64,000 bases of DNA from Candidatus Saccharimonadota bacterium (GCA_016178135.1 JACOTW010000003.1:472-64471); one strand, 5' to 3'. Positions 772 to 60,205 are shown, numbered from the stretch's first letter. Notes: generated by a model from the letters alone, not told the origin. Program-made: numbers and translations.

Positions 772-3708
772 ATGAAACGTTATAATCCTAAAGAAATCGA
801 GCCAAAGTGGCAAAAAGTTTGGGAAGATCGAAAGATCTATCAAGCCTCTGAAGATCCAGCTAAGCCTAAACGCTATGTGTTGGAATATTTTCCGTACCCC
901 AGTGGTGCGGCCATGCACGTTGGGCATGTACGCAATTACACCATAGGTGACGTTGTGGCACGTTTTTACCGGATGCGTGGCTACAATGTTATGCATCCGA
1001 TGGGTTGGGATGCATTTGGACTGCCCGCCGAAAATTACGCCATTAAAAACAACATTAGCCCCCAGCAAGCGATAGCCGAGAACACTACCAGGTTTAAGCA
1101 ACAGCTTATGCGGATGGGTTTTAGCTATGATTGGTCGCGCGAAATCAATAGCTCTGACCCCAGTTATTATAAGTGGACGCAGTGGTTTTTCAAGCTGTTG
1201 TTCGATCGCGGGCTGGCGTACCAAAAAGAATCTCCCCAGTGGTGGTGCGAAACGGACAAAACGGTATTGGCAAACGAGCAGGTAGAATCCGGCAAGTGCT
1301 GGCGTTGCGGCAATGAAGTGACCAAAAAATCTCTCAAACAATGGTTTTTCAAGATTACAGATTACGCCGATAGATTAGTAGAAGATTTGGAAGATTTGGA
1401 TTGGTCAGATGCGATCAAATCCATGCAACACAATTGGGTTGGACGGAGCAAGGGTGCCGAGATCACTTTTGCAGTAGAAACTAGCAAGCAGAAAACAGCA
1501 AAGGAAGAAAAAATCATCGTCTTTACGACTCGGGCCGATACTTTGTTTGGGGCAACCTTCATGGTACTAGCCCCCGAGCACCCATTGGTGATGAAAATTG
1601 CGAAAGATTCGCAAAAATCAGAGGTGGAAAAGTACGTTAAACAGGCCCAGGTAAAGAGCGACATTGAACGGCAAGACACTGACCGCGAGAAAACAGGTGT
1701 ATTTACCGGTGCTTATGCAATTAACCCCGCCAACAACGAGAAGATTCCAATCTGGATAGCAGACTATGTATTGTACGGTTACGGTACAGGGGCCATCATG
1801 GCTGTGCCGGCTCATGATGAACGTGACTTTGAGTTCGCCGTGAAGTTTGATCTTCCGATCCGACAGGTATTTATGGAGTCGGGAGATGACCCGGTCAATC
1901 CACCGCAAGAAAAATTCAAGATGATCAAACGCAAAACAGTTGTTGTCCACCTGAGAGATCGTTCATCCGGCAAGTATGCGTTGCTTAATTGGCACGGGAC
2001 ATTAGAGGGTATCACAACGGCGATAATGGGAGGTATTGATGAGGGCGAGACGGCAGAAAATGCCGCGCTGAGGGAGATATCAGAAGAAGCAGGGATACAT
2101 AATGCCAAGATTGTAAAAACTGCCAGATGGATAAGCGCAGCCACCTACTGTGCATCGCACAAACAAGTAAATAGAAAATCAATTTCTACGGCTGTCTTAG
2201 CAGAAGTCGATAACTTGTCAAAACAGACCGAGGTAGCTGATTATGAAAAAAAGACCCATACCCTCATCTGGGTTACAGGTGATGCCGTAGAAGAATCGCT
2301 AATACCGATTAACCAAAAGCAAATCTGGAGTTATTTACAAAACGAGACCGCACTAACAGGTGAAGGTGAAGTCATTAACTCAGGAGAGTATGATGGTCTA
2401 TTGACATCAGATATGCGGGAAAAGATCGTGGCTGATTTGGCCAAGAAAAAAGTCGGCAAGGAAGTCGTCAATTACAAAATGCGCGATTGGCTCATTAGTC
2501 GGCAACGGTATTGGGGGGCACCAATTCCTATCATTCATTGCCCTAAAGATGGTGCCGTGGCGGTGCCAGACGATCAGTTACCGGTGGAACTGCCAGAGGT
2601 CAAGAGCTATCAGCCGACTGGCGAGGGGGCTAGCGTGCTGGCTGGCGTGGAGGAATGGGTCAATACAACTTGTCCTAAATGTGGCGAACCAGCCAAAAGA
2701 GAAACAGACACCATGGACGGTTTTGCTTGCTCCAGCTGGTATTTCCTGCGTTTTGCCGATCCGCATAATGATGTAGAGCCATTTAGCCCCCAAAAAGCCA
2801 AGTTTTGGTTGCCGGTAGATGATTACATCGGTGGAGCCGAACACGCCGTGATGCATTTGCTGTATGCTCGTATGTGGACCAAGGTTATGTATGATGCTGG
2901 ACTTGTAGAATTCAAAGAACCGTTTACGGCACTCCGCAACCAAGGTATGATTTTAGCTCCTGATGGTCAAAAGATGAGCAAGTCCAAGGGTAATACTATT
3001 GAGCCAGATGAGTTATTAGATCAAGGTTATGGTGCGGATTCGGTGCGTCTCATGGAACTTTTTATAGGCCCATGGGATCAATCAGCAGCCTGGAGCGTTA
3101 AAGGTTTGGGCGGTACGTATCGTTTTTTGAATCGTGTGTGGACTATCTGTCAAGAGCATATGACAGAAGTTACTAAGCTAGAAACTGAAGATCAAACTCA
3201 AAAAGTAGAAAATCAGGATATTAGCAAAGAATTGCGACGGGCTGTTCATCAGGCAATTAAGCGGGTTAGTGTAGACTTGCACGATATGGGCTTCAATACG
3301 TCTATAGCTACGCTTATGGAATTGACTAACGAGCTATATAAACTTAAAAGAAGCTATCCGGTAGGTTCGGCTGAATGGCACGATGCTTTAAGTATTTTGT
3401 TGCAATTGTTGGCACCGTTCGCACCCCACATTACCGAGGAATTATGGCAACAGTTAGGTGGACAAACATCGATACATACCAGCTCGTGGCCATTATGGGA
3501 CGATGCCCTGTTGGTGAATAACATCATGAAAATTATTGTGCAGATCAATGGTAAGTTACGGGCTGAAATCCATATTGCCACTGGTGCAAGTGAGATACAA
3601 GTTCTAGATACCGCTAAGGCTAACGAACGAGTAGCAAGCTATCTTCAGGATCACAAAATCAAGAAATCTATATATGTACCAAATAGACTAGTGAATTTTG
3701 TAGTCTAG
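772..3708 (+). CDS. leuS: Leucyl-tRNA synthetase, 978 aa, carrying an extra Nudix-fold insertion
   Basis: N-terminal HMGH class-I motif region (PYPSGAAMHVGHVRNYTIGDV), KMSKS (QKMSKSKGN), overall LeuRS architecture. Confidence 0.95.
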   Translation: MKRYNPKEIEPKWQKVWEDRKIYQASEDPAKPKRYVLEYFPYPSGAAMHVGHVRNYTIGDVVARFYRMRGYNVMHPMGWDAFGLPAENYAIKNNISPQQAIAENTTRFKQQLMRMGFSYDWSREINSSDPSYYKWTQWFFKLLFDRGLAYQKESPQWWCETDKTVLANEQVESGKCWRCGNEVTKKSLKQWFFKITDYADRLVEDLEDLDWSDAIKSMQHNWVGRSKGAEITFAVETSKQKTAKEEKIIVFTTRADTLFGATFMVLAPEHPLVMKIAKDSQKSEVEKYVKQAQVKSDIERQDTDREKTGVFTGAYAINPANNEKIPIWIADYVLYGYGTGAIMAVPAHDERDFEFAVKFDLPIRQVFMESGDDPVNPPQEKFKMIKRKTVVVHLRDRSSGKYALLNWHGTLEGITTAIMGGIDEGETAENAALREISEEAGIHNAKIVKTARWISAATYCASHKQVNRKSISTAVLAEVDNLSKQTEVADYEKKTHTLIWVTGDAVEESLIPINQKQIWSYLQNETALTGEGEVINSGEYDGLLTSDMREKIVADLAKKKVGKEVVNYKMRDWLISRQRYWGAPIPIIHCPKDGAVAVPDDQLPVELPEVKSYQPTGEGASVLAGVEEWVNTTCPKCGEPAKRETDTMDGFACSSWYFLRFADPHNDVEPFSPQKAKFWLPVDDYIGGAEHAVMHLLYARMWTKVMYDAGLVEFKEPFTALRNQGMILAPDGQKMSKSKGNTIEPDELLDQGYGADSVRLMELFIGPWDQSAAWSVKGLGGTYRFLNRVWTICQEHMTEVTKLETEDQTQKVENQDISKELRRAVHQAIKRVSVDLHDMGFNTSIATLMELTNELYKLKRSYPVGSAEWHDALSILLQLLAPFAPHITEELWQQLGGQTSIHTSSWPLWDDALLVNNIMKIIVQINGKLRAEIHIATGASEIQVLDTAKANERVASYLQDHKIKKSIYVPNRLVNFVV
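1867..2400 (+). other. Nudix hydrolase domain inserted in-frame inside leuS (after the CP1/editing region AHDERDFEFAVKFDLPIRQV)
   Basis: Perfect Nudix box GGIDEGETAENAALREISEEAGI (GX5EX7REUXEEXGU); segment ~130 aa longer than the equivalent E. coli LeuRS linker. Confidence 0.7.
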
Positions 3709-4473: not shown

Positions 4474-4486
4474 ACACTAATACTCT

Positions 4487-4646
4487 ACTGGACTTACGCA
4501 AAGCTCCCTCATCCCCAGACCAACTAACCTCGGCTACAAACAGTTTTTCCTCTCTCGATGTACCTTCAGGTACCTCTCCTTCAGATAAAACTGTTTTCGC
4601 TCGAGCTGATTCGCCCTGGGAACGGGGGATTTTGCATAAGTCCAGT
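4487..4646. repeat. MITE-like palindromic repeat, canonical copy (orientation B)
   Basis: ctggacttacgcaaagctccc..ccccagaccaac...ctctcgatgtaccttcaggtacctctccttcag...gctcgagctga..cctgggaacggg..ttttgcataagtccagt; terminal inverted repeats and central hairpin. Confidence 0.9.
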
Positions 4647-4735
4647 TTAGAATCATATAAACTGGATCAGATTCGACACACTATTCATAATACATATTAC
4701 GCAAGACACTCTAGGCAAGCGCTCGAGGTACAATC

Positions 4736-5991: not shown

Positions 5992-6206
5992 GGCAAAAAT
6001 GCCGCAGCTGCCGTCAGTTCTTGATGACTTCACAGTCAAAGCGCACAATGCTCGGAGAACTCACCATTTCTTTTATTACTTTAAGATGAGAAATAGCTTA
6101 ACAACTCCTCGCATCTAATTGTGCTTTTGACATTCAGGCTTCAGGAACTTACGGATGCTGGGGGAGGCCATGGAATGCGCTCCTGCTGAGCGCGCATTAG
6201 TAATTA

Positions 6207-6365
6207 ACTCGACTTACGCAAAACTCCTCCATCCCCAGATCGAATTCTATCGGCTGCAAACAGTTTTTCTGTCCTCGATGTAGCCACAGCTACCTCTCCG
6301 CCAGATAAAACTGTTTTCGCTCGAGATAATTCACTCTGAGAACGGACGATTTTGCGTAAGTCGAG
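6207..6365. repeat. MITE-like palindromic repeat (orientation B, 'ctcgac/gatcgaattctatcggctgcaaacag' subfamily)
   Basis: actcgacttacgcaaaactcctccatccccagatcgaa...gatgtagccacagctacctc...ctgagaacggacgattttgcgtaagtcgagt. Confidence 0.9.
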
Positions 6366-6372
6366 TTAATAC

Positions 6373-7218
6373 TTATTTCATTAATAACAGCCCAATCAGG
6401 GCAATGAGACAACCAAGTATTTTGCGCTTTATGTGGTCTCGCTCGTTTAACCAGAGGGCTGCGGCCCCAAAAATAACCACAATCTTGAAAGTTGTAACTG
6501 CCGAAACAATACTCAAGTTGCCCACAATATTTAATAGCGTTACCCAGGAGATGGCTTGTAAAAACTTTAATCCGCCAGTCACCAGGGTATCTTTTCGGTT
6601 GTAAGTGGAATGGCTGCGAGTCAACAAGGTTATAAATCCCAACCCCAAGCATTGTGACCACCAGCTCAACAAGGTTCCTGCAGTAAAACCGGTTGTTTTC
6701 ATAAGTGCGCGCTCAGCGCTCAAAAGTATTCCAAGCAGAACTCCACTTGCCAACATCATTAAAAAGTATTTATCAAACTTGAAACGGCCAAGCTGGTGGT
6801 TTTTGGATACAATAATAACAGATGCAAGTAGTAGAGTCGTTCCAATGACTTGCAAAGGCGTTAGACCTTCACCTAGGAATAGCGTAGCAATGATAATGGT
6901 AACTGGCGTGTAGATATTGACAATTATGTTGGTCACAGTGGCATCTACGTGTCGCTGAGCAGTGTAGTTGGTAATAAAGTACGCTGAACCAGCACCCGCG
7001 CAAGTCAAAGCTAATAAAACCAAATGGGCCGTGTTGCCATGAATCCGAAAAGGCGAGAATAATGGCAACATCAAGCCGAGAACGGCAATTATAAGAGTGG
7101 TATGAAATGCAAAGGAAATTTGGTTGTCCTGTTCGCGTTTGGTTGCCAGCCAGCGCCTTTGCAACGGAGAAGCCGAAGCGGCAACAAAATAAAAAAGGTA
7201 GGCGAACAGAGTCATCAT
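6373..7218 (-). CDS. EamA/DMT-superfamily membrane transporter (10-TM)
   Basis: Two-repeat hydrophobic architecture; LFLGEGLTPLQVIGTTLLLASVII-type EamA helix motifs. Confidence 0.55.
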   Translation of the reverse strand: MMTLFAYLFYFVAASASPLQRRWLATKREQDNQISFAFHTTLIIAVLGLMLPLFSPFRIHGNTAHLVLLALTCAGAGSAYFITNYTAQRHVDATVTNIIVNIYTPVTIIIATLFLGEGLTPLQVIGTTLLLASVIIVSKNHQLGRFKFDKYFLMMLASGVLLGILLSAERALMKTTGFTAGTLLSWWSQCLGLGFITLLTRSHSTYNRKDTLVTGGLKFLQAISWVTLLNIVGNLSIVSAVTTFKIVVIFGAAALWLNERDHIKRKILGCLIALIGLLLMK

Positions 7219-7231
7219 ATGAGCTTAGTAT

Positions 7232-7391
7232 ACTGGACCTGTCGCAAAATCGCCCGTTCCCAGGCTAAATCAGCTCGAGCTGGGAGTAGTTTGACCGAAG
7301 GAGAGGTAGCCATAGCTACATCGAGAGAAGACAGACCACTATCAGTCGATACCAGTTGGTCTGGGGATGGGGGAGCTTTGCATAAGTCCAG
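7232..7391. repeat. MITE-like palindromic repeat (orientation A), abutting the start of the 6373-7218 gene
   Basis: actggacctgtcgcaaaatcgcccgttcccaggc...ctgaaggagaggtagccatagctacatcgagagaag...ctggggatgggggagctttgcataagtccag. Confidence 0.9.
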
Positions 7392-7434: not shown

Positions 7435-7463
7435 TTGACAACAGGGGTGATTATCTGTAGAAT
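7435..7463 (+). promoter_or_regulatory. Sigma70-like promoter for rpsP: TTGACA-17-TAGAAT
   Basis: ttgaca acaggggtgattatctg tagaat ~40 nt upstream of rpsP ATG; RBS gggaaggaaa. Confidence 0.55.
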
Positions 7464-7504: not shown

Positions 7505-7942
7505 ATGTTAGTCATTCGTATGCAGCGTACTGGCCGTAAGGGTTACGCTCAATTCCGCGTTGTAGTCCAAGACTCGCGCCGGACCCCTACTAGTGGGCGG
7601 GTTGTAGCTTTGCTCGGAAGTCTTAATCCGCACACTAAACAGGCAATTATCAATAAAGAAAAAGCCGTTTTTTATATGGAACATGGTGCTCAGCCTTCAG
7701 ATAGAGTTGTTCAGCTTTTTCAGGCAGAGGGCATAAAATTGCCCGAATGGGTTAAGGCTGCAACTATCAAAAAACGTGAAATTCGTAACTCTGAAAAATT
7801 ACGCAAAAATCGTCCAGCCGAACCGGAAAAAGAGACCTCTAGTGATCAGTCAGCTAATAAATCGGAAGAAGTTAAATCAGACGCTGTTGAGATTGAAGCC
7901 GAAGATCAATCTACCGATACACCAGCTTCCAAACCCGAATAG
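7505..7942 (+). CDS. rpsP: 30S ribosomal protein S16 with acidic/Lys-rich C-terminal extension
   Basis: MLVIRMQRTGRKGYAQFRVVVQDSRRTPTSGRVVALLGSLNP matches S16 N-terminus. Confidence 0.9.
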   Translation: MLVIRMQRTGRKGYAQFRVVVQDSRRTPTSGRVVALLGSLNPHTKQAIINKEKAVFYMEHGAQPSDRVVQLFQAEGIKLPEWVKAATIKKREIRNSEKLRKNRPAEPEKETSSDQSANKSEEVKSDAVEIEAEDQSTDTPASKPE

Positions 7943-7972
7943 CCCACAATCATCATTCCACCATTCCAGCAT

Positions 7973-7997
7973 CATTCCAGGGGTACCCCCTGGAATG
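7973..7997. other. Perfect 11-bp-stem hairpin CATTCCAGGGG-TAC-CCCCTGGAATG immediately after rpsP
   Basis: Exact inverted repeat read directly; no downstream T-run. Confidence 0.5.
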
Positions 7998-8024
7998 ATG
8001 TAATGGTTGTGGTATGAAGTCTTA

Positions 8025-8065
8025 CTGGACCTGTCGCAAAACTCCCTCGTTCCCAGAGTGATTTT
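8025..8065. repeat. Solo terminal fragment of the MITE family
   Basis: tactggacctgtcgcaaaactccctcgttcccagag then breaks off. Confidence 0.6.
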
Positions 8066-8069
8066 ATAT

Positions 8070-8404
8070 TGACTGGACCTGTCGCAAAGCTCCCCCATCC
8101 CCAGACCAACTAATCTCGGCTGGTAGCGGTCTGTCTTCTCTCGATGTAGCAAAGAGCTAATTAACATCTATCTATCGGCTAAAATCTTCAGGTCTGCCAC
8201 TTTTATTCTGTTTTTTGTTTTCGGTTCGTACCGATAGGTACGACCAAAAGCCAAGAAAACAGAATAAAAATCATGCCAGCTGCTAAAGATTCGCTATCAA
8301 CGGATAGATGTTAATTAGCTCTAAGGCTACCTCTCCTTCAGGCAAACCATTCCCAAATCGAGCTGATTTAGCCTGGGAACGGGCGATTTTGCGACAGGTC
8401 CAGT
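8070..8404. repeat. MITE-like repeat (orientation B) interrupted by a nested ~170-bp palindromic insertion in its central loop
   Basis: Left part 8070-8150 and right part 8321-8404 together reconstitute a canonical copy (…gatgtagc | … | aaggctacctctccttcag…). Confidence 0.85.
8151..8320. repeat. Nested palindromic element with perfect 18-bp terminal inverted repeats (agctaattaacatctatc / gatagatgttaattagct) and imperfect long internal hairpin
   Basis: Terminal IRs exact; internal ttttattctgtttt...aaaacagaataaaa arms. Confidence 0.75.
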
Positions 8405-8447
8405 TGAGGCCAATAAATTAAAGAGACAATTTTGCATTATAACGTAC

Positions 8448-8479
8448 TTGACCAAAACCCTCGGGGGGGGGGGTAAACT
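8448..8479 (+). promoter_or_regulatory. Putative promoter with 11-G homopolymeric tract (8463-8473) between -35-like TTGACC and -10-like TAAACT: candidate slipped-strand phase-variation switch
   Basis: ttgacc aaaaccctc G11 t aaactc; spacer 20 nt as written, would be optimal (17) with G8; ~45 nt upstream of ATG 8519. Confidence 0.4.
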
Positions 8480-8518
8480 CACATATAAAGGATAAGCATA
8501 AAAAGGAATACATAGCTC

Positions 8519-10135
8519 ATGGCACGACTTCCCACTCCTGGTTCAGATAATGGTACATGGGGAGACATCCTTAATGGCTACCTCAGATCCTCCCATAATG
8601 AAGATGGTACTCTCAAGTCTGGGGTAGTTGGCGTAGGCCAACTACAAGACAACTCAGTTACCATCGCGAAACTAGACACCAGTACCAAAGCCTCACTAAT
8701 AAAGGCCGACAATGCCCTAAGTACCACAACAGCTGACGCGGATTACCTTAAGAAAATGGATGCTAGTACGACCTATGTTCCGCGGAACATCGACGGTGAG
8801 CTTGAGCTGATTTTGACCGGCAAGAACCGCACGACGTCAGCGGGTGACGAGGCGGTGCTACGCGGCAGTGATGTCGCCTCTGCGGTGCTGGACCTGTCGT
8901 CCAAGACCGGCACGGACGAAGCTCTCGGTTCGGCCTATGAGGCGGTTTCGTTCACCGTCCCTGCCGGTATCACTACGTTTGGTAGCGTGCGGCTGCGGAT
9001 CAAAAAGACCGGCACTATCGCCGACACTGGGACCTACGTGCAGGCAGCACTACACGCGGACAACGCTGGCAAGCCCGGCGCTGCGGTCGGTCTGAACAAC
9101 GCCGTGCAGCGGATCTATGGCGGACAGATCGAGACGACTTACACCGACTGCGAGTTCCTGCTAAGACTGACTGTTGCGACTCCCGGTACCCGTATGTGGG
9201 TTGTGTTGACCGTGGTGGTCAGTGGCGGCGGCACCCTCAGCATGGACAGCACTGTCGGAGTGGCATCGAGTGGCAATCTCGCCGAGAGTGCCGACGCGGT
9301 GACATGGACAAACAAAGACGTAGACGCCTACGTGCAGGTGTACGGGCAGAACGTTGCCGGAATCCAAGGTAACTCGACCAACTATGTAGCAATTCGTGGC
9401 GACTCAACCAACTACTTCGGCGGCTACTTCACTAGCAAACGCGGGACCGGCGTTTACGGCTTCTCGAACAACCACCGGGGTGTCGAGGGCAGTAGCGACC
9501 ATGGCCCGGCTGGGTATTTCGATAGCCGTGGCGGCTACGGTGTCGAGGCGGTTAGCACCAATAGCATCGCCGTCTACGGCAAGGCCGCTGGCGGCGGCGT
9601 GAAGGGTGAGAGTCCGTCGGCCTTCCCGGCGGTTCTGGGTGACAACATACTGAGCGGTCCGGGCGTGCAGGGCAAGACCGTCACGGGCATTGCCGGGCTG
9701 TTCGAGCAGTCGGGGTCTACGACCGCCGCCGTGTTGGTGTCAAAGCTCGGCACGGGCGCGACTGGCAACATGTGGGAGGGTCGCAACAGTGGCAGCACCC
9801 GTCGCGTGTCGTTCGACGTGAACGGGAATCTAAGCTTCGTTAGCAACGGCACGATCACCGCCGAGACTGGCTATCTACTACTCCAATGCTCGCAGACAAC
9901 TCAGGACATCTACTTCGGAGCAACGGGCGACACCGGCACGGTGCAGGCTCGCCGGTCAATAACGATGAGCGACGCGAAGAACCTTATTCTCGGCACTGGG
10001 ACCGGCACGAAAATCGGCACTGCGACGACGCAGAAGCTCGGCTTCTACAACGCGACGCCCATCGTGCAGCAGCCTAGGCCGACGGATGCGGCCAGTATCA
10101 TCACGCTTCTAACTACGCTCGGATTGTGCGCGTGA
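8519..10135 (+). CDS. Glycine-rich beta-repeat surface / phage-tail-fibre-like protein; chimeric base composition (low-GC 5' ~280 nt, GC-rich remainder)
   Basis: Repeated G-x-Y-G / YGxSxxxxGVEG units, no TM helices; abrupt rise in G+C from ~8800 through 10260 visible by eye. Confidence 0.45.
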   Translation: MARLPTPGSDNGTWGDILNGYLRSSHNEDGTLKSGVVGVGQLQDNSVTIAKLDTSTKASLIKADNALSTTTADADYLKKMDASTTYVPRNIDGELELILTGKNRTTSAGDEAVLRGSDVASAVLDLSSKTGTDEALGSAYEAVSFTVPAGITTFGSVRLRIKKTGTIADTGTYVQAALHADNAGKPGAAVGLNNAVQRIYGGQIETTYTDCEFLLRLTVATPGTRMWVVLTVVVSGGGTLSMDSTVGVASSGNLAESADAVTWTNKDVDAYVQVYGQNVAGIQGNSTNYVAIRGDSTNYFGGYFTSKRGTGVYGFSNNHRGVEGSSDHGPAGYFDSRGGYGVEAVSTNSIAVYGKAAGGGVKGESPSAFPAVLGDNILSGPGVQGKTVTGIAGLFEQSGSTTAAVLVSKLGTGATGNMWEGRNSGSTRRVSFDVNGNLSFVSNGTITAETGYLLLQCSQTTQDIYFGATGDTGTVQARRSITMSDAKNLILGTGTGTKIGTATTQKLGFYNATPIVQQPRPTDAASIITLLTTLGLCA

Positions 10136-10372
10136 ACACCGCTGCCCTCCTAGCGCTGATCGCCGAGCTGTACGACCGACTCATGGCATCAGAGGCTCGC
10201 GTCCGCGAGCTGGAAGAAAAACTCGTCGTTCGCTCCCAGGATGCCGACCAAACTAGCAACTAGTCGGCACCTATCCTCACTGTACGTTGCCGGAAAATTC
10301 CCACTAACAATGCGACAAAGCTGACACAAAAGTAGCGACACCCGTATACTTTCGTTTAGGTTACTAAACTAA

Positions 10373-10699
10373 ATGAAAGGAGTGTCGCTAATGCGTACAC
10401 TAACACAGTACGAAGTAGCTTGGAATATGCACCAGGCTGGCTCAACTATTGAGCAAATAACTAAGGTGGTAAGCAAGCACCGGGCCACTGTTTACCGTTG
10501 GTTAAAACAAATCAATCTGGCCGGCATCCGTAAGTTCCTTCGTCGTAAAGAAACCTGCAAGATCCGACGACCCAAAGCCCAAACTCCCGAGACAACCATC
10601 CAGAAGATCGTTGACATCCGTAATGAGTTCGGTTGGTGCGGAGCCAAGATACGCAAAGAACTAAAAGAAAACCACGGCATTAGTCTCGCCCTAAATTAA
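10373..10699 (+). mobile_element. Truncated IS481/IS3-type transposase N-terminal (HTH) fragment; IS remnant
   Basis: HRATVYRWLKQ...RRPKAQTPETTIQKIVDIRNEFGWCGAKIRKELKENHGISL resembles the HTH + 'RRPxxSPxxTP...I..LR....G...I...L' leader of IS481-family transposases; catalytic DDE part absent. Confidence 0.5.
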
Positions 10700-10888
10700 A
10701 AGGGTCTCACCCTTAACATCACCCTTAACAGGGAAGAATTTTGGTGATTAGTGCCAAATCAGTTAGAAGACAGTCTTCTACAGGAGTCTTTTAGTGTCAT
10801 ATATCAGCTAACTGATACTTTATTGTTTCTGTCTAGGAAACATTATTCATGAGCTAACGAATACTATTTGGGAAAGATTTTATATGAG

Positions 10889-10921
10889 CTAAGTCGTGTT
10901 GCTGTGAAAAAGTGCGAAAGT
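10889..10921 (+). promoter_or_regulatory. Recurring AAAAGTGCGAAAGTCCTATATAAT promoter-like box upstream of KH-protein gene
   Basis: Identical core to boxes at 705-733, 36399-36433, 45548-45583. Confidence 0.5.
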
Positions 10922-10966
10922 CCTATATAATAGTTTCTACAGCCAGTAATTGAGGAGTATCAAATC

Positions 10967-11374
10967 ATGAATAGTACCATAGACCAACAGTTCATAGAAT
11001 TTATTGTTAAATCACTTGTCAACAAGCCAGATGCTGTAAGTGTTGAGCGTCGTATTGACGAGAAGGGTGTATTGCTTGAACTTACCGTTGATCCTGAAGA
11101 CCTTGGCCGAGTAATCGGAAAGCGCGGGGCGACTGCTCAAAGTCTGCGAACTCTGCTCCGAGCTCTTGGCACCAAGAATGACGCACGTTACAACCTAAAA
11201 ATTGTTGATAATGGTGAACAACCCGTAGCAACATTACCATCTGATCAAGGTACGCCATCCCCCGTGAGCAATAATGATGAAGACGTGGATGTTGCTGAAG
11301 ATGATACAGATCAAAACAGTGTTGTAAGTAAAACCCGAAAAGAACTTGATGATCTGGACGACTTAGATATATAA
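10967..11374 (+). CDS. KH-domain RNA-binding protein (YlqC/UPF0109-like) of the rpsP-trmD operon, with acidic C-terminal tail
   Basis: VERRIDEKGVLLELTVDPEDLGRVIGKRGATAQSLRTLL KH-fold GxxG motif; conserved position between rpsP and trmD. Confidence 0.75.
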   Translation: MNSTIDQQFIEFIVKSLVNKPDAVSVERRIDEKGVLLELTVDPEDLGRVIGKRGATAQSLRTLLRALGTKNDARYNLKIVDNGEQPVATLPSDQGTPSPVSNNDEDVDVAEDDTDQNSVVSKTRKELDDLDDLDI

Positions 11375-11668: not shown

Positions 11669-12313
11669 ATGAAGATTCAGATCATCTCTTTGTTTCCAGA
11701 GATATTTAAACCAATTTTGAGTACTAGTATGCTTCGGAAAGCTCAGCAAAAGGGTCTAGTTGAGTTTTCTTATATTGATTTGCGGGATTACGGGATCGGA
11801 CCACGAAAAACCGTTGATGATACGCCTTACGGTGGTGGCGATGGCATGTTACTAATGATAGAACCCCTTGTCGGTGCGATTGAGGCGGCTAGGGTCAACG
11901 ACCCTGACGCTATGGTCATCTTACCTACTCCACGTGGCAAATTGTATAAGCAGTCTGATGCCAAGCGACTTGCTGCTAATGAAAAAGGCTTAATACTGGT
12001 TTGTCCCCGTTACGAAGGCTACGACGAGCGAGTTACTAATTGGGTTGACCAGCAATATTGCATAGGCAATTACATTCTAACTGGTGGTGAATTGCCGGCC
12101 ATGATAATCATTGATAGCGTGGTTCGTTTAATTCCTGGTGTACTGGGGGGAGAGTTTTCGGCTGAAGTTGAGTCTTTCCAGCAAGACGATAAAAGTATTG
12201 AATTTCCACAGTACACCCGCCCAGAGGATTTCAAGGGCATGAAGGTACCGAAAATCTTACTAAGCGGAAATCATACAAATATTCAGCAATGGCGGGACAA
12301 GCACGGAGTTTAA
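11669..12313 (+). CDS. trmD: tRNA (guanine37-N1)-methyltransferase
   Basis: MKIQIISLFPEIF..., GYDERV, SPOUT-fold TrmD motifs. Confidence 0.9.
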   Translation: MKIQIISLFPEIFKPILSTSMLRKAQQKGLVEFSYIDLRDYGIGPRKTVDDTPYGGGDGMLLMIEPLVGAIEAARVNDPDAMVILPTPRGKLYKQSDAKRLAANEKGLILVCPRYEGYDERVTNWVDQQYCIGNYILTGGELPAMIIIDSVVRLIPGVLGGEFSAEVESFQQDDKSIEFPQYTRPEDFKGMKVPKILLSGNHTNIQQWRDKHGV

Positions 12314-12941: not shown

Positions 12942-12950
12942 TGATACTGT

Positions 12951-13111
12951 ACTGGACCTGTCGCAAAATCGCCCGTTCCCAGGGCAAATCAGCTCTAGTT
13001 TATAGTGGTTTGACTGAAGGAGAGGTAGCTTTAGCTACATCGAGAGAAGACAGACCGCTACCAGCCGAGATTAATTGGTCTGGGGATGGGGGAGCTTTGG
13101 GTAAGTCCAGT
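12951..13111. repeat. MITE-like palindromic repeat (orientation A)
   Basis: actggacctgtcgcaaaatcgcccgttcccagggcaaatcagctc...gtagctttagctac...ctggggatgggggagctttgggtaagtccagt. Confidence 0.9.
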
Positions 13112-13577: not shown

Positions 13578-13851
13578 AGTGCATGGTCACAGTATGATTC
13601 CCGTCCTGCCTCCAGATACTCTGGTATGGGGGTGGATGTGGTTTAGGAGCCTAAAAACTGGCGATGTTGTGATGTTTGAACACGCCAATAAAGAAAAAAT
13701 TAAACGTATAGATCACTTTGAGGACGATAAACTGTACTTACTTGGCGATCACTTAGAAACTAGTACTGATAGCCGGCATTTTGGCTTGCTTGACAGAAGC
13801 GCGGTAAAAGCTAAAATATTTTGGCCACGTGTGGGACCGATCAACCGTTAG
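13522..13851 (+). CDS. sodX: NiSOD maturation peptidase SodX (S26 signal-peptidase family); start codon uncertain (overlaps sodN 3' end)
   Basis: GHSMIPVL catalytic-Ser motif, GDVVMF, small S26-like size, immediately downstream of sodN. Confidence 0.7.
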   Translation: MMKLPKFFGQPKKPLIIRRVHGHSMIPVLPPDTLVWGWMWFRSLKTGDVVMFEHANKEKIKRIDHFEDDKLYLLGDHLETSTDSRHFGLLDRSAVKAKIFWPRVGPINR

Positions 13852-13858
13852 TTTTGTT

Positions 13859-14015
13859 CGACTTACCCAAAGCTCCCCCATCCCCAGACCAACTAATCTC
13901 AAGCGGTAGCGGTCTGCCTTCTCTCGATGTAGCTATGGCTACCTCTCCTTCAGTCAAACCACTATCAGCTCGAGCTGATTTGCCTTGGGAGCGGATGATT
14001 TTGTGTTAGTCCAGT
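13859..14015. repeat. MITE-like palindromic repeat (orientation B; inverted relative to 12951-13111)
   Basis: cgacttacccaaagctcccccatccccagaccaactaatctc...gatgtagctatggctacctc...ccttgggagcggatgattttgtgttagtccagt. Confidence 0.9.
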
Positions 14016-15229
14016 TTAGTGTCTAGAAATACAGAATTTGCTAGATTATCAGCACATTGAGGACAACTTTCTTCCTCGTCATCTTCCGATAGCCAACGCT
14101 TAGTGGCGATAAGCCAGGGTTGAAAGTCATGATAAGCGATGAGATCAGCCAACCGCCGTAAAATCCAGCCAATTTTTCCATAAAGTCTAATATTTCCCCA
14201 GAGAACAGCGGCCCAATACTTGCCTACCGGAGTTATATAAATAGGTTTTTTGGCCACATAAGGCAGGGGTAATTTTTTGTCGGCTAGTCGTATTAAATTG
14301 TTGGTAACTGTTACGGCATCGTGCAGGGCGGTTTGTGCCATACCGGAATATGGAGTGTCGGCGCTATCACCTATCACATAGATACCTGGCTCGGCTTGCA
14401 AATATTGGTCAACACGAACCTTTTTATTGCTCGCTAGCTGAAACTGATTTTCGGTAAAGAATGGATTGTTGGCTACGCCAGCGGTCCAAATGACCGTGTG
14501 GCTACGGATGGGTTTACTATTGATTATTAACGAATCTATGGTTTGGGCTTGAGCAGGTGTTTTGAGGTATAGTTTGATGCCGAGTTTGCGGAGTCGCCGC
14601 GTAACCTTGGCAGACAAATCCTTTGGCAGGTTTGGCAATAGTCTTGGCGCGGCCTCGACAAGGTCAATATGAAATTCTCGAGGCTTCAGGCCATGCCTTA
14701 TGCATATTTGCTTTAAATAGGCTGGTAAAGCGCCGGCTAGTTCTACACCAGTTGGTCCGCCGCCAATAATTACGTAACTAAGATCTGGTCGGTGGTCATC
14801 GAACAATTGTTTGTGTAGATGATTTTTTATCTCCTCTGCCTCCTCTAACGATTTCATACTATAGGATAGTTCGCTAAGTCCATTGATTCCGAAATAATTT
14901 GTTACCAATCCGATGCTTAAAATCAAAGCATCATATGAAAAGATTTGTCCGTTTTTTGTTTTCAGGCTATGGATTTTTCGGTCAATCAATACGACTTTAT
15001 CGCGAACAATAGTGATGCGTTTTTCATTGAATACTTCCGCAAGCGGAATACTAGAAATTTTGCGCTTACCACCAGTAGCTGTGCGATAAAGAGCTGGATG
15101 GAAGTCAAAACTATCGCTATCGCTGATTAGGGTTATGTGAAAGCGACCATCTTCCGCAAGGCGCAGAGCGGATTTTACTCCGCCAAAACCTCCCCCAACT
15201 ATTACTATTTGATGTTTTTTACTGTTCAT
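14006..15229 (-). CDS. ndh: Type II NADH:quinone oxidoreductase (NDH-2); the longer ORF-track extension to 15469 reads through an upstream repeat
   Basis: MNSKKHQIVIVGGGFGG first dinucleotide-binding motif at the proposed start, second GGGPTGVE motif, NDH-2 length ~407 aa. Confidence 0.75.
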   Translation of the reverse strand: MNSKKHQIVIVGGGFGGVKSALRLAEDGRFHITLISDSDSFDFHPALYRTATGGKRKISSIPLAEVFNEKRITIVRDKVVLIDRKIHSLKTKNGQIFSYDALILSIGLVTNYFGINGLSELSYSMKSLEEAEEIKNHLHKQLFDDHRPDLSYVIIGGGPTGVELAGALPAYLKQICIRHGLKPREFHIDLVEAAPRLLPNLPKDLSAKVTRRLRKLGIKLYLKTPAQAQTIDSLIINSKPIRSHTVIWTAGVANNPFFTENQFQLASNKKVRVDQYLQAEPGIYVIGDSADTPYSGMAQTALHDAVTVTNNLIRLADKKLPLPYVAKKPIYITPVGKYWAAVLWGNIRLYGKIGWILRRLADLIAYHDFQPWLIATKRWLSEDDEEESCPQCADNLANSVFLDTKLD

Positions 15230-15304
15230 GATGCTTGTGGTTGATATATGATAAGTGTACAGGTTTGGTCTATGTTTTGCCAGCTTCTGTATGTAATTGG
15301 CATA

Positions 15305-15453
15305 TAGTCCCCGCAAAACAAATTCGTGGGTTTTTGAAGCAATGATCTTTGAGCCAAAAACTGACTTTTCCGAGAGAGACATATCCTTAGATACGTTGAA
15401 CGAGGAAAGGCGGTTTTGGGCCAAAGAGGGTGATTCGAAAAGGCGATATAATA
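15305..15453 (+). repeat. Second repeat family (~150 bp), near-identical copy at 60059-60205; encodes a shared stop-free N-terminal leader MIFEPKTDFS(E/Q)RDISLDTLNEERRFWAKEGDSK
   Basis: tagtccccgcaaaacaaattcgtgggtttttgaagcaatgatctttgagccaaaaactgacttttcc.agagagacatatccttagatacgttgaacgaggaaaggcggttttgggccaaagagggtgattcgaaaag almost identical at both loci. Confidence 0.85.
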
Positions 15454-22894: not shown

Positions 22895-24346
22895 ATGGAT
22901 TTTATTCGTGTAAGTCCGGTAAACTATCAATACATGAAAGTTACGATCGTTACATGCTACAAAGATCCTGATTATGTACGGGCTCGTACTTTGCGTGCGG
23001 GCTTGGCTGCCAATGCGGGAGTTGAGATGACTATCGTAAAAAACAAACATAAAAATATCTTGCGCTATCCAGAGACTATTATCCGACTAGTCATTGACCG
23101 CATTAACAATAGACCAGATGCTTATATCTTGACGTTTCGCGGTTACGAAATATTGCCTTTTTTACAGCTAATCGCTTGGTCAAAACCAATTATATTTGAT
23201 GAATTTATCAATCCGTTGGAATGGTTGGCGGAGCCACGGCACGAAAAATGGGTAGGGCTGATTCCTAAAAAGGCCCTGAAGAAGTTTTACGTCGCTTTGC
23301 TTGGGCGTTGTCGTTTTATCCTGGCTGATACTCAAGCGCACGCCGATTACAGCGTCAAATTAAGCGGTCAGCAAACAAATGTACTGGACTCACCCAAAAC
23401 CCCTCGTTCCCAGGGCGAATCAGCTCGAGCGAAAACAGTTTTATCTGAAGGAGAGGTAGCCTTAGCTACATCGAGAGAAGAAAAACCGTTTGTAGCCGAT
23501 AGAATTCGATCTGGGGATGAGGGAGTTTTCGACAGGTCCAGTAAATACTGGGCAATACCTGTCGGTACTGACGAGACGGTTTTTGATTATAAACTGGACT
23601 TACGCAAAATCGCCCGTTCCCAGGGCAAATCAGTTCGAGTTGGAAGTGGTTTTACCGAAGGAGAGGTAGCCATATCTACATTGAAAGAAGGCAGACCACT
23701 ACCAGCCGAGATTAGTTGGTCTGGGGATGGGGGAGTTTTGCGTAAGTCCAGTAAAGTTCGGGTTTTAGAAAAATACTTCCAAGTATTTTATTACGGCAAC
23801 ATGTTACCCCTTCATGGACTGGAATATGTTTTGGAAGCGGCTGTTTTATTGAAAAATAATCAAAACATAAAGTTTTTGATCGTTGGGGGCAACAGTAGAA
23901 CAGTTAAAATGATAAAAAACGCGCAACAACAAGGAGCAAAAATTAAGTATCAGAACTGGATTCCATTTGAAGAATTACCAAAAGTTATTGCCACTTCTAG
24001 TTTATGTTTAGGCGGGCCATTTGGTAAAACAAATCAAGCACAAAAAGTAATTACAGGTAAAACTTACCAGTTTTTAGCCAGCGGTGCGGCTACGTTGATT
24101 GGCAATACAGAAGCCAGTGCTTTGTTTATTGATAAGAAAAATAGCTTAGTTGTGCCGCTAGCCGATCCGCTAGCTCTAGCTACGACCATTGATTGGGCTT
24201 ATCAGCACCGGCAACAACTTCCGGCAATTGGTCAAGCCGGCAACAGGCTTTATCAGGAAAACTTTTCGGTGCGTATTATTACTGGCGAATTGTCAGCTAT
24301 TTTGACCAAACTTGCTTCTGGCATGAGTAATAATCGCCATCACTAA
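22895..24346 (+). CDS. GT-B glycosyltransferase (GT4-like) whose inter-domain region carries two in-frame MITE insertions
   Basis: C-terminal GT1/GT4-type domain (…FLASGAATLIGNTEAS…VPLADP…); ORF stays open across 23383-23752. Confidence 0.55.
   Translation: MDFIRVSPVNYQYMKVTIVTCYKDPDYVRARTLRAGLAANAGVEMTIVKNKHKNILRYPETIIRLVIDRINNRPDAYILTFRGYEILPFLQLIAWSKPIIFDEFINPLEWLAEPRHEKWVGLIPKKALKKFYVALLGRCRFILADTQAHADYSVKLSGQQTNVLDSPKTPRSQGESARAKTVLSEGEVALATSREEKPFVADRIRSGDEGVFDRSSKYWAIPVGTDETVFDYKLDLRKIARSQGKSVRVGSGFTEGEVAISTLKEGRPLPAEISWSGDGGVLRKSSKVRVLEKYFQVFYYGNMLPLHGLEYVLEAAVLLKNNQNIKFLIVGGNSRTVKMIKNAQQQGAKIKYQNWIPFEELPKVIATSSLCLGGPFGKTNQAQKVITGKTYQFLASGAATLIGNTEASALFIDKKNSLVVPLADPLALATTIDWAYQHRQQLPAIGQAGNRLYQENFSVRIITGELSAILTKLASGMSNNRHH
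23383..23542. repeat. MITE-like repeat (orientation A) inserted in-frame in the glycosyltransferase ORF
   Basis: actggactcacccaaaacccctcgttcccagggcgaatcagctcgagcgaaaacagtttt...gtagccttagctac...ctggggatgagggagttttcgacaggtccagt. Confidence 0.9.
23593..23752. repeat. MITE-like repeat (orientation A), second tandem in-frame copy in the same ORF
   Basis: actggacttacgcaaaatcgcccgttcccagggcaaatcagttcgag...gtagccatatctac...ctggggatgggggagttttgcgtaagtccagt. Confidence 0.9.
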
Positions 24347-28298: not shown

Positions 28299-28336
28299 TT
28301 ATAACTTTCTTTGGAGTGATGTACTCGATCTGGTTT

Positions 28337-28413: not shown

Positions 28414-28624
28414 TCATTCGACCTAAAAACTCCTCCATACCTAGACCGAATCCCATCGGTTATACCGGACTGACGAAAAACTCCCCCATCCCCAGACCAA
28501 CTAATCTCGGCTGATAGCGGTCTGTCTTCTCTCGATGTAGCTAAGGCTACCTCTCCTTCAGTCAAACCACTCCCAACTCGAGCTGATTTGCCCTGGGAAC
28601 GGGCGATTTTGCGACAGGTCCAGT
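28414..28624. repeat. Partial MITE fragment (28414-28469) followed by full MITE-like copy (orientation B, 28470-28624)
   Basis: …aaaaactcccccatccccagaccaactaatctcggctgatagcggtctg…gatgtagctaaggctacctc…cctgggaacgggcgattttgcgacaggtccagt. Confidence 0.9.
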
Positions 28625-28686
28625 ATAAACAATTTATCTTACATGGAAACTATTATTCCCCATTGTCGAAGATTTTAACAGATTAG

Positions 28687-36258: not shown

Positions 36259-36295
36259 TCGGTTGCTATATAGAACTTTCGCACTTTTACGTCGC

Positions 36296-36398: not shown

Positions 36399-36433
36399 TG
36401 TTATCAATGCAAAAGTGCGAAAGTCCTATATAA
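36399..36433 (+). promoter_or_regulatory. Recurring CTGTTATCaATGcAAAAGTGCGAAAGTCCTATATAAT promoter-like box upstream of pheS (very short leader)
   Basis: Same box as 45548-45583 over ~35 nt; TATAAT ends 11 nt before pheS ATG. Confidence 0.5.
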
Positions 36434-45547: not shown

Positions 45548-45583
45548 GTTATCTATGTAAAAGTGCGAAAGTTCTATATAAAA
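45548..45583 (+). promoter_or_regulatory. Recurring CTGTTATCtATGtAAAAGTGCGAAAGTTCTATATAAA promoter-like box upstream of glutaredoxin-like gene
   Basis: Near-identical to 36399-36433 box. Confidence 0.5.
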
Positions 45584-57956: not shown

Positions 57957-59921
57957 ATGAGTCGATTTAGTCTTGAGTCAGATTATCAGCCTACCGGTGA
58001 TCAACCGGTAGCTATTGCTAAATTGACAAAAAATCTTGAGAAAGACGTTAAAGAGCAGGTTTTGTTAGGGGTTACGGGTTCGGGGAAAACATTTTCTATG
58101 GCCAATGTGATTCAGAACGTACAAAAACCAACACTTGTACTTAGTCATAATAAAACCTTAGCAGCGCAGTTGTATGGTGAATTTAAACGTTTCTTTCCAA
58201 ACAATGCGGTGCATTATTTTGTGAGCTATTTTGACTACTATCAGCCTGAAGCCTACATTGCCCGCTCTGATACTTTCATAGAAAAGGATTCTCAAATTAA
58301 CGAAGAAATAGATCGCTTACGGCACGCGGCAACCGATGCCCTATTAAGCCGAAAGGATGTAATAATTGTTGCTAGTGTGAGCTGTATTTATGGTATTGGC
58401 TCGGTTGAGGATTATGATAATCTTGCGGTTAATTTGAAACGAGGAGAGAGGCGCATTCGAGATAAGCTTCTTAGGCAACTTACAGACATACAGTATCGAC
58501 GCAACGATGTAGATTTTCATCGAGGCGTGTTTAGGGTACGAGGAGATGTAGTTGATGTTTTTCCGGCAGGCGAGGAAGTGGCGTATAGAATTGAATTCTT
58601 TGGTGAAGAAATTGATAAAATTACCAAAATCGATCCACTAACCGGTGAAATTATAGCCAACATTGACACGTTCAAAATATTTCCAAGTTCGCACTACGTT
58701 ACACCCCAAGAAAAATTAAAAATGGCTTTAGGTAAAATTGAACGCGAGCTTGACGAAAGGTTAAATTTGTTTAAGCAGACCGGTAAGTTGCTTGAAGCTC
58801 AACGGCTGGAACAACGTACTCGTTTTGACTTGGAAATGATGGAAGAAACTGGTTTTGTGAAAGGAATTGAAAATTATAGTCGCTATCTGACAAATCGTGA
58901 GCCTGGCGAGCAACCAGCCACTTTGTTGGACTATTTTCCGGATGATTTCTTGATGTTTGTTGACGAATCACACATGACCATTCCACAGATTCGTGGAATG
59001 TACAACGGCGATCGGGCACGCAAGGAAGTGTTAGTGGAGCATGGTTTTCGCCTCCCCAGCGCGCTGGATAATCGCCCGTTAACATTTACAGAATTCGAAA
59101 AGCACATAAATCAAGTCGTGTATGTGAGCGCAACGCCCGCACAGTATGAAATATCCCGTAGTCCAGAACCAGTTCAGCAGGTTATTAGACCGACTTGGTT
59201 GGTCGATCCGAAGATTGAAGTCCGGGCAATTGATGGGCAAATTGATGATTTAATTGGTGAAATTAGGGCAACGGTCGCCAAGCATCAACGTGTTTTGGTT
59301 ACGACTCTGACCAAAAGAATGTCCGAGGACTTGACCGAATATCTCAAGGAATTAAACATCAAAGTTACTTATTTGCACAGTGATGTGGATACGCTGGACC
59401 GGACTGACATTTTGCGTGATTTACGATTGGGGGTCTATGACGTGGTGGTTGGTATCAATTTGTTACGCGAAGGTTTGGACTTGCCAGAAGTTAGCTTGGT
59501 GGCGATTTTGGATGCTGACAAAGAAGGCTTTTTGCGAAGCGAGCAGGCACTTATACAAACAGTAGGCAGGGCGGCTAGACATCTTGATGGCAGAGTAATT
59601 ATGTACGCCGACCATATAACTGGCAGTATGCAGCGGACCCTGGATGAGACAGATCGTCGTCGTGCAATACAGCTTGCCTACAATAAGACTCACAATATTA
59701 CACCCACTGGCATATCTAAAACTGTAGAAAAAGGTATGCGACCAGATCTGCCAGAAGAAGCCAAAACAGCAAAACTTAACCTCAATAAAATTCCAAAAGA
59801 CGAGTACAAACATTTGATCAAAGACCTAACCGCCCAAATGGAACTGGCCTCCGCCAACCTAGAATTCGAAAAAGCCGCCGAACTCCGCGACATCATTGAG
59901 GATATCAAAAACAAATCTTAA
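57957..59921 (+). CDS. uvrB: Excinuclease ABC subunit B
   Basis: Walker [10 protein letters not shown], helicase motifs, beta-hairpin region, C-terminal UvrC-interaction coiled coil (…[12 protein letters not shown]…). Confidence 0.95.
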
Positions 59922-60058
59922 AACCGTGGATTTTCTAATGCCAGATTCACTCTTACGATATCAATGCCCGAATGTACTTAGTTAGACCTTGATGATTGTA
60001 ACCCAACAGGTTTTTCTGGACGACGTCTATATTGGACGTACCGTAAAAAGAAGGTATA

Positions 60059-60205
60059 GTCCCCGCAAAACAAATTCGTGGGTTTTTGAAGCAATGATCT
60101 TTGAGCCAAAAACTGACTTTTCCCAGAGAGACATATCCTTAGATACGTTGAACGAGGAAAGGCGGTTTTGGGCCAAAGAGGGTGATTCGAAAAGTGCGGT
60201 TTTTC
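60059..60205 (+). repeat. Second copy of repeat family 2 (see 15305-15453), forming the 5' region/N-terminal leader of hicB
   Basis: ~97% identity by eye to 15305-15453. Confidence 0.85.

Follow-up and report, generated by a model that had tools for sequence, protein, structure and literature searches.

Introduction

In Neisseria meningitidis the porA and opc genes have phase-variable promoters with a homopolymer in the spacer between the −35 and −10 hexamers, and the vlp genes of Mycoplasma hyorhinis are phase-variable with a poly-A promoter spacer. Modular exchange is a general principle among the tail fibres of phages and tailocins, and the known hosts of Saccharibacteria are high-GC Actinobacteria. 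Here we describe a locus of Candidatus Saccharimonadota that touches on all of these themes. It lies in a 64-kb stretch of DNA given as one strand (GCA_016178135.1, JACOTW010000003.1:472-64471; 43% GC overall; hereafter the window), where a gene resembling a phage tail fibre, headed by a promoter-like sequence with a long G tract and surrounded by mobile elements, occupies the space between the ribosomal protein gene rpsP and a KH-domain gene. Published precedents for its parts include the nspA gene of N. meningitidis, with a phase-variable homopolymer tract in its promoter (PMC6389960), the tail-fibre recombination of carotovoricin in Pectobacterium (PMC13195805), and phages for which interactions with Saccharibacteria as well as Actinobacteria have been predicted (PMC10746230).

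Host recognition and host switching in ultra-small episymbionts are largely unknown, and this locus provides a concrete candidate that can be tested. A literature search, incomplete in its coverage and thus weak as evidence, turned up neither phase variation nor fibre-like adhesins reported for Saccharibacteria. The results below establish an intact, selected and modular fibre-like gene that joins a low-GC promoter cassette shared with a second locus to a distal part of foreign composition, and that sits in a permissive gap among mobile elements that are still active.

An accessory fibre-like gene between rpsP and the KH gene

The insertion is bounded by two genes that lie outside it: on the left rpsP (7505–7942, + strand), encoding a ribosomal protein S16 whose C-terminal tail is long and acidic (Pfam Ribosomal_S16, E 1e-9), and on the right a KhpA-type KH-domain gene (10967–11374, +; Pfam KH_KhpA-B, E 2e-23). 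The identity of trmD, farther along at 11669–12313, was likewise confirmed by Pfam. A query for the exact rpsP sequence retrieved no record. The first-pass annotation of this DNA had rpsP ending at 7942 and the KH gene beginning at 10967, and held that the two are normally adjacent; Pfam bears out both identities, and synteny bears out the adjacency. A TrmD query retrieved 80 related loci, in each of which rpsP and the KH gene were mapped; both were found at 66 loci: those of 64 other species together with the window and a sister strain. Over these 66 loci the distance from the rpsP stop to the KH start has a median of 95 nt, and it measures 42–174 nt in 54 of the 64 other species. The two longest spacers of the 66 belong to the window (3024 nt) and the sister strain (2425 nt).

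Ten of the other species (about 16%) also have extended spacers, of 394–2200 nt. The long spacers inspected in four species (L033, L058, L059 and L040) carry genes unrelated to those of the window, and in none of the 64 other species does the rpsP–KH spacer contain anything related to the fibre gene or to the transposase fragment described below. The intervening genes are therefore an accessory insertion, which is real and restricted to this lineage, and the site is a recurring landing place, given the inserts that ten other species carry there.

At the centre of the insertion lies an intact gene of 538 codons (8519–10135, +; HY003_01905), whose product resembles a phage receptor-binding protein, or tail fibre. 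Exact matches to its proteins belong to the Candidatus Saccharibacteria metagenome-assembled genome (MAG) GCA_016196105.1, with locus tags of the HY003_ series. The composition of the gene changes within its reading frame: GC content at third codon positions (GC3) is 0.40–0.52 in the first two 150-nt bins, steps up at ~8770 and stays at 0.66–0.82 from there on, compared with 0.32–0.50 in the neighbouring genes. The GC profile upholds the chimeric GC content of what was earlier described as a glycine-rich, tail-fibre- or adhesin-like gene. From 8770 to 10265 (+) extends a horizontally acquired block of ~60% GC, compared with 43% for the window, made up of the fibre body, the 3′ end of the gene and a small open reading frame (ORF). 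This is the GC-rich tail segment reported before, which reaches ~10265 and contains the ORF in question (10132–10263, +; 43 aa from a GTG at 10132, or 45 aa from 10126). The small ORF is coiled-coil-like, overlaps the fibre stop codon, has a GC3 of 0.72 and is called as a gene in Logan contigs (L101 1659–1790); it matches nothing in Pfam, PHROGs or NCBIfam, and was co-transferred with the high-GC block.

The fibre-like gene is not part of a phage or tailocin tail module. Its neighbours are EamA, rpsP, KH, trmD, leuS, rnc and cytochrome oxidase, and none of the ten large ORFs scanned within ~20 kb is of phage type; all are housekeeping-type, among them leuS, rnc, oxidoreductases, UbiA, cytochrome oxidase, a glycosyltransferase and MgsA.

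Modules, family and predicted structure of the fibre-like protein

A search of 5.8 billion proteins yielded a module map in which the protein consists of an N-module (aa 1–76, MARLPTPGSDNGTWGDILN...), a beta-sandwich (aa ~115–280), glycine-rich repeats of ~11 aa (aa ~280–400) and a C-module (aa ~480–538). The 538-aa protein as such has no match in Pfam, PHROGs or NCBIfam. Its N-module is common to many proteins with DUF5907, BppL_N, pectate-lyase-like, fn3 or glucanase domains, occurs on 538- and 569-aa proteins of the IMG/VR viral contigs L089 and L090 (62–63% GC), and matches a collagen-repeat protein of Streptomyces phage BRock at 65% identity over 34 aa. Across 50,697 phage genomes, tblastn matched no more than the first 34 residues and recovered no full-length homologue; a pattern scan of IMG/VR with the protein body returned no relative. 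The C-module (KLGFYNATP...) is found again in proteins that contain BppU_N, phage-tail-repeat or glycine-rich domains.

Only one protein, P0002, matches aa 77–518, the body of the fibre-like protein, at 74% identity. When the body served as query in an exhaustive HMMER search, 138 representative clusters emerged that share a domain of ~300 aa, and this central domain has no Pfam match in the nine best relatives. One of the clusters, P0082, combines the central domain with the N-module. The P0082 gene (L098 3975–5633) is located on a contig of 66% GC, with lower GC (0.53) upstream and in its first ~240 nt; it is a mosaic built in the reverse direction, which hints at two-way module traffic. The N-module was also seen in a different Saccharibacterium, on a 360-aa collagen-like (G-x-y repeat) protein encoded from L049 4384 onward, ~0.9 kb downstream of trmD.

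An AlphaFold2 model built on a 44-sequence alignment gives the beta-sandwich a predicted local distance difference test score (pLDDT) above 90 for ~aa 121–240 and aa 251–270 and the glycine-rich ~11-aa repeats a pLDDT of ~80, while the mean for the whole model is only 69. Foldseek searches of the PDB retrieved a baseplate chain of Staphylococcus phage phi812 (E 1.4e-5), carbohydrate-binding modules (CBM) of families 6, 4, 35 and 61, and gp20 of Mycobacteriophage Douge; in BFVD the top matches were mainly phage proteins, including minor tail proteins of Gordonia phages. Taken together, the module partners, the viral occurrence of the N-module and the predicted fold support a glycan-binding protein of the phage receptor-binding type. 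The product has no lipobox and does not resemble a classical surface lipoprotein.

Origin and selection of the high-GC block

The nearest relatives of the fibre part belong to tail modules of phage-like contigs with 66–70% GC. P0002 is encoded, with a GC3 of 0.90, on a contig of 69% GC, directly after a gene 35% identical to virion structural proteins of Bacillus siphophage. The next relative, P0032 (43% identical; 70% GC contig), follows LysM and tail-lysin-like genes, and its C-terminus matches minor tail proteins of Curtobacterium phage. Relative to P0002 the gene shows a dN of 0.205 and a dS of 0.96, with dN/dS of ~0.21, and at least 40 residues (aa 317–356) are fully conserved. These substitution patterns indicate that the fibre gene is under purifying selection and that its transfer was not a recent one from the lineage of P0002.

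Independent assemblies and the sister strain

The arrangement is reproduced in independent assemblies. Logan contig L002, found in three samples, corresponds to window positions 8482–10358 and covers both GC junctions, while contigs L101 and L102 from other runs join the fibre gene to KH and trmD. A second MAG, GCA_040960765.1, contains rpsP, the fibre gene and KH in the same order on a 654-kb contig (locus L099, the sister strain). The junction between low and high GC is thus present in L002, L099, L101 and L102, and the adjacency to KH in L099, L101 and L102.

The fibre gene of the sister strain differs at 8 of 1617 nt; seven of the differences are synonymous and one changes an amino acid. 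Six of the eight fall within 100 nt of the C-module (window 9961–10061), a clustering that could reflect a short gene-conversion tract. Mutagenesis of the diversity-generating retroelement type was rejected as its source, as the clustered differences are nearly all synonymous third-position changes.

A shared 5′ cassette with a G tract in the promoter spacer

The promoter and the first ~22 codons of the fibre gene have the low-GC composition of the genome itself. Together with the 5′ untranslated region (UTR) and its ribosome-binding site they form a cassette (8447–8585, +) that is 93–97% identical to L083 9931–10067; identity outside it is 27–57%. The second copy lies ahead of, and extends into, a paralogue (HY003_03715, P0019), which is a second fibre-like gene on another contig of the same genome and follows rpsB-tsf-mazEF. 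The distal part of the paralogue is also GC-richer, at 56% compared with 44% for its locus, and we observed that this gene (L083 10001–11605), like the one in the window, is placed next to translation genes.

Within the cassette, TTGACC (8448–8453) is followed by 9 nt, a run of 11 G (8463–8473, +), TAAACT (8474–8479) and a 39-nt leader; the −35 and −10 hexamers were assigned by consensus alone. The poly-G-containing promoter of the first-pass annotation is thereby located, with its G tract in the promoter spacer. The tract is the only G/C run of at least 8 in the 64-kb window, where ~0.006 runs of at least 11 would be expected by chance. Sequences that are otherwise nearly identical differ in its length: the window has G11, and the sister strain, which matches the remainder of the locus at ~99% identity, has G9, as does the paralogue. 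Just two G/C runs of at least 9 occur in 1.09 Mb of related loci, namely the paralogue's and a G10 in L048. The latter (L048 6434–6443) was noted in another Saccharibacterium at the start of an accessory gene between KH and trmD, whose 511-aa product has, by inspection, a hydrophobic stretch in its N-terminal sequence. In a consensus scan the G9 copy at the paralogue was called as a sigma-70-like promoter with an 18-nt spacer, and the G11 copy of the window, with a 20-nt spacer, was not called. Slippage would alter the length of the spacer because the tract lies between the two hexamers. The G tract is a likely candidate for a slipped-strand promoter switch, and phase variation of the gene is predicted from its sequence.

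A sequencing artefact was ruled out as the source of the tract, which lies internally between unique flanks and is found again at a second locus and in a second assembly. The start of contig L002 at 8482 was attributed to the paralogous repeat together with k=31 rather than to an effect of the G tract; L101 and L102 begin exactly after the tract, a coincidence to which we give no evidential weight. The exact 25-nt 5′ UTR sequence found no match in a metagenome scan.

Mobile elements left of the gene

The interval between rpsP and the cassette is filled by miniature inverted-repeat transposable elements (MITEs), and both the solo MITE end and the MITE with a nested element that had been read from the sequence are indeed there. 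A solo terminal inverted repeat of the MITE1 family (CTGGACCTGTCGCAAAA...; repeat families D8/D9) occupies 8019–8064 (+) and matches MITE1 ends elsewhere in the window by blastn. It is followed by a MITE1 copy in reverse orientation (8067–8404, −) whose halves, 8067–8154 and 8321–8404, are 88–98% identical to other copies (e.g. 13034–13099 and 28541–28624) and are split by a palindromic MITE of ~171 nt (~8155–8325, no strand assigned). The nested element has inverted ends GAGCTAATTAACATCTATC, forming perfect inverted repeats of 18–20 nt, and is inserted at a TA/TAA site in the MITE1 centre; barring matches between its own inverted ends, it is present in one copy in the window.

MITE1 measures ~165 nt, has imperfect inverted ends of ~32 nt and is present in 17–22 full or partial copies per 64 kb. 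Copies were seen in nearly every intergenic gap (e.g. 4475–4656, 6195–6376, 7226–7391, 12945–13110, 13844–14025, 23376–23751, 28452–28633 and 60930–61111), an unusually high density for a reduced genome. The sister strain has a second copy of the nested element, in a MITE1 upstream of rpsP (L099 1772–1944), at a site that is empty in the window (~7311). The filled and empty states of this site in the two strains mean that the nested element has moved recently; the demonstration applies to the nested element and not to MITE1. The nested element seems to prefer a TA/TAA in the middle of MITE1 as its target.

The strain-specific right flank

Right of the high-GC block the window contains a 612-nt segment (10286–10897, +) that blastn and MAFFT alignments show to be absent from the sister strain, where 15 nt stand in its place. 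The segment comprises a fragment of an insertion sequence (IS), a partial small MITE and AT-rich repeats. It is either a later addition in the strain of the window or a deletion in the sister strain, and its junctions may carry a GTTG target duplication.

The IS fragment (10291–10699, +) consists of an IS481-like left end and a truncated transposase gene (HTH_29, HTH_32 and HTH_23), its left boundary at 10291 being the point at which copies from other genomes begin to align. The transposase ORF spans 10391–10699 from a conserved ATG, or 10373–10699 as listed, and encodes 102–108 residues with an N-terminal helix-turn-helix (HTH) only: its homologues run on into the catalytic core, and the ORF of the window ends at residue 102. 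By itself the fragment scores 29 bits against a cut-off of 224, slightly favours IS630 and cannot separate IS630 from IS481. Longer relatives (75–76% identical), themselves truncated and also below the IS481 cut-off, match IS481 best (E 6e-19, collinear with model positions 9–159); IS630 was dropped on their account, and the IS481-like transposase fragment proposed earlier holds up as an HTH fragment for which IS481 is the best family. The 612-nt segment as a whole was rejected as a complete IS, there being no matching right end: local alignment of the IS left end with the right end of the segment was no better than that of shuffled sequences.

A third small MITE (GGGTCTCACCCTTAACAG...; 10700–10760, +), of which the left end is present, truncates the transposase gene and contains a 12-nt tandem duplication (10707–10730). 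A complete copy of this MITE with both inverted ends is found upstream of the paralogue (L083 9712–9830). Farther right are AT-rich degenerate direct repeats (10803–10892, +), consisting of a 17-nt unit, ATsAGCTAACnrATACT, present twice at 82% identity and a 29-nt unit present twice at 76%. Where three direct repeats of ~14 bp had been described, the AGCTAA motifs do exist, and the repeats prove to be these two weak, degenerate units, which Tandem Repeats Finder left uncalled and which do not significantly match the IS left end in inverted orientation. In three independent contigs of other genomes (L093–L095) we noticed the same small HTH ORF (126 aa) downstream of a gene with a CdiA_C toxin domain and ahead of an IS3-like orfA/orfB pair.

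Transcription of rpsP and the KH gene

Just 3′ of the rpsP stop lies a long hairpin (7953–8017, +; dG −37.9 kcal/mol, z −5.8). The perfect hairpin of the first reading is its core, a 14-bp perfect stem (7970–7983/7987–8000) with a UAC loop and without a T-run. Strong hairpins (z < −3) in the 90 nt after rpsP occur at 16 of the 66 loci, the window and the sister strain included, and several have T-runs. The hairpin is probably the native 3′ terminator or stabiliser of rpsP rather than a part of the island. A promoter-like sequence rated strong, TTGACA-17-TAGAAT (7435–7463), precedes rpsP, and a TGnTAnAAT promoter motif lies ahead of KH in 39 of the 66 spacers.

The KH gene of the window has a promoter-like site of its own, GTGAAA-16-TATAAT (10904–10931, +), carried by a lone MITE2-family end motif, AAAGTGCGAAAGTCCTATATAAT. 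Five long ORFs of the window have this motif 10–49 nt ahead of them in the correct orientation. The end motif, AAAGTGCGAAAGTCCTATA(T/A)AA, was observed at 713–731, 10909–10927, 36412–36430 and 45560–45578 (+) and at 36269–36287 (−), with leuS and KH among the ORFs downstream. Its sequence and placement look like those of a portable outward-facing promoter, or possibly of a conserved regulatory site.

Because TGnTAnAAT motifs precede KH in so many spacers and a promoter-like site precedes the KH gene of the window, rpsP and KH are probably separate transcription units, and no unit would be broken by the insertion, which would occupy a permissive gap between terminator and promoter. The first-pass annotation had the island splitting a conserved operon; the terminator-like hairpins after rpsP and the KH promoter motifs argue against it. 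Nor is the insertion a single island. It is a mosaic of at least four separate events, in which only ~1.5 kb (8770–10265) is compositionally foreign. The broader description of horizontally acquired mobile DNA in a core operon accordingly survives in part: accessory insertion, foreign DNA, fibre-like gene, MITEs and IS481-like fragment are retained, and the disruption of a core operon is improbable. As to the marks of a classical genomic island, no integrase was found, the only tRNA lies at 28336, and in place of uniform composition there is the one foreign block among parts of differing age.

Other features of the window

The leucyl-tRNA synthetase gene (772–3708) encodes a protein with a NUDIX domain inserted at residues 392–506 (Pfam E 1.8e-8). 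Two further pairs of direct repeats were seen: 15303–15442 and 60055–60194 (140 nt, 99% identity, 44.7 kb apart), and 59827–59923 and 60816–60912 (97 nt, 86% identity, 1 kb apart), the latter resembling a duplicated gene 3′ end.

Discussion

What could have assembled this locus, and what might it do? The account that we favour, and that we judge somewhat likelier to be right than wrong, sees the spacer as a landing site occupied by an orphan fibre gene, composed of a cassette and an imported block, subject to a G-tract switch and encoding a glycan-binding fibre for another cell. The rpsP–KH spacer, normally ~95 nt long and typically with a terminator-like hairpin and a KH promoter, has in this lineage become a landing site for accessory DNA. 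Three layers may be distinguished in the cargo. A low-GC cassette with promoter, ribosome-binding site and ~22 codons, of which a second copy stands before a different fibre-like gene, forms the first. The second is the ~1.5-kb high-GC import encoding the CBM-like beta-sandwich, the glycine-rich repeats, the C-module and the coupled 43-aa ORF; recombination at conserved module boundaries may have brought in this new binding part, as in the modular exchange of phage fibres. The later MITE and IS481-like insertions, which differ between strains, make up the third. Gain or loss of G residues would switch the promoter between a stronger state at G8–G9 (spacer of 17–18 nt) and a weaker one at G11 (20 nt). 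Least certain of all is the function: the product may be a glycan-binding fibre recognising the surface of another cell, for which the bacterial host of the episymbiont would be the likeliest target. A more specific version is a long shot in our estimation. It would have the binding part of the fibre domesticated from phages of the bacterium's own, probably actinobacterial, host and turned into a poly-G-switched attachment adhesin, with specificities swapped behind a fixed cassette at several chromosomal sites.

The strongest rival, to which we allow a small yet appreciable chance, is that the gene is a spare fibre, a receptor-binding cassette serving a prophage, a tailocin or an infecting phage encoded elsewhere. 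The product would be supplied in trans, or the gene would act as a recombination donor altering the host range of the particle, with the N-module docking to the baseplate. The viral contigs with N-module proteins also hold large upstream genes, the module partners include baseplate-related domains, the lack of a signal peptide on sequence inspection is as expected of a virion protein, the small coupled downstream ORF is a typical phage arrangement, and the two loci share the docking end and differ in their distal parts, all of which such a role would accommodate. It fits poorly with the absence of phage-like genes among the ten large ORFs scanned around the gene, with the equally isolated position of the paralogue after rpsB-tsf-mazEF, and with the private promoter and variable G tract at each copy, which would be unusual for a late phage gene. 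That the gene is instead functionless cargo, a remnant of a decayed prophage or stray foreign DNA kept by chance, is distinctly improbable. Its surroundings are indeed full of truncated elements (the solo MITE end, the truncated IS and the partial small MITE), a phage tail module is represented by a fragment only, and the present G11 spacer predicts a weak promoter; yet the 538-codon frame is intact in two strains with seven of eight differences synonymous, the comparison with P0002 gives a dN/dS of 0.21 with aa 317–356 fully conserved, a dedicated promoter cassette is conserved between two loci, and a small reduced genome is expected to shed useless DNA.

Two further explanations concern the reality of the insertion itself. 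In favour of intervening genes that are ancestral and were lost in other lineages stand the inserts that ~16% of the other species carry in this spacer. Those inspected consist of unrelated genes, however, none of the 64 species has a fibre or transposase relative there, the block is compositionally foreign and the region varies between strains that are ~99% identical; synteny and composition thus refute the ancestral arrangement, which we regard as very improbable. An artefact of assembly or binning, in which a high-GC segment from another organism was joined to the contig through repeats, might be suspected from the sharp change in GC and the MITE repeats flanking the gene. With the GC junction inside one continuous reading frame, a contig (L002) that spans both junctions, and the same order in L101, L102 and the second MAG, it is effectively refuted and its chance is negligible.

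Several observations weigh against the account that we favour of a switched, host-directed fibre. The relative P0002 differs by 27% at the nucleotide level, and the block could have come from a Saccharibacterium of higher GC content, or from its phage, instead of a phage of Actinobacteria. As a −10 element TAAACT agrees weakly with the consensus, and the G counts come from assembled consensus sequences, not from reads, one of the assemblies possibly being long-read, where homopolymer lengths are error-prone. Because the hairpin after rpsP lacks a T-run, transcription starting at the strong rpsP promoter could continue through it and express the gene at any tract length. No signal peptide is visible on inspection of the hydrophilic N-terminus, and no evident route would take the protein to the cell surface. 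Finally, the portion of the genome covered amounts to 64 kb plus 13.5 kb, and a prophage or tail-like particle elsewhere is possible.

Should the functional reading be wrong, the locus would still be a well-documented, if ordinary, mosaic insertion. The locus also shows that accessory DNA actively lands in the spaces separating conserved translation genes of these reduced genomes, where mobile elements vary between strains ~99% identical and promoters appear to be supplied by some MITE ends.

Comparison with known systems

The locus combines known kinds of feature: the exchange of fibre modules, a homopolymer switch in a promoter spacer, and decoration by MITEs and IS elements. With phase-variable promoters it shares a long homopolymer between the hexamers, of 11, 9 and 9 residues among near-identical sequences. 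The resemblance to the Mycoplasma vlp system extends further, to a host-dependent bacterium with a reduced genome and to several genes with near-identical promoters and 5′ ends and divergent distal parts. Unlike in the classical cases, the controlled gene is phage-fibre-like and not a surface lipoprotein or porin, and switching is here a prediction from sequence.

The mobile elements compare in a similar manner with their classes. The MITEs are typical in being short and non-coding, with inverted ends, many copies and insertion polymorphism, whereas the families found here are unnamed and very dense, at roughly one copy per 3–4 kb. In relatives of the IS copy, the HTH part and the start of the core match the IS481 family best; unlike members of that family, the copy has neither a catalytic (DDE) core nor a right end.

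As in tail-fibre exchange, the gene joins a conserved N-terminal anchor to a swapped distal part, with the breakpoint at a module boundary and a small downstream ORF moving along with the distal part; it differs in its position between housekeeping genes and in a swap that crosses from 43% to ~60–70% GC. The minor tail proteins of actinobacterial phages (Gordonia, Curtobacterium, BRock and the Douge central fibre) resemble it in the N-module, in the predicted fold and, through P0032, in the C-terminus. The gene stands apart from them in having no full-length homologue among the 50,697 phage genomes and a central domain without a Pfam model.

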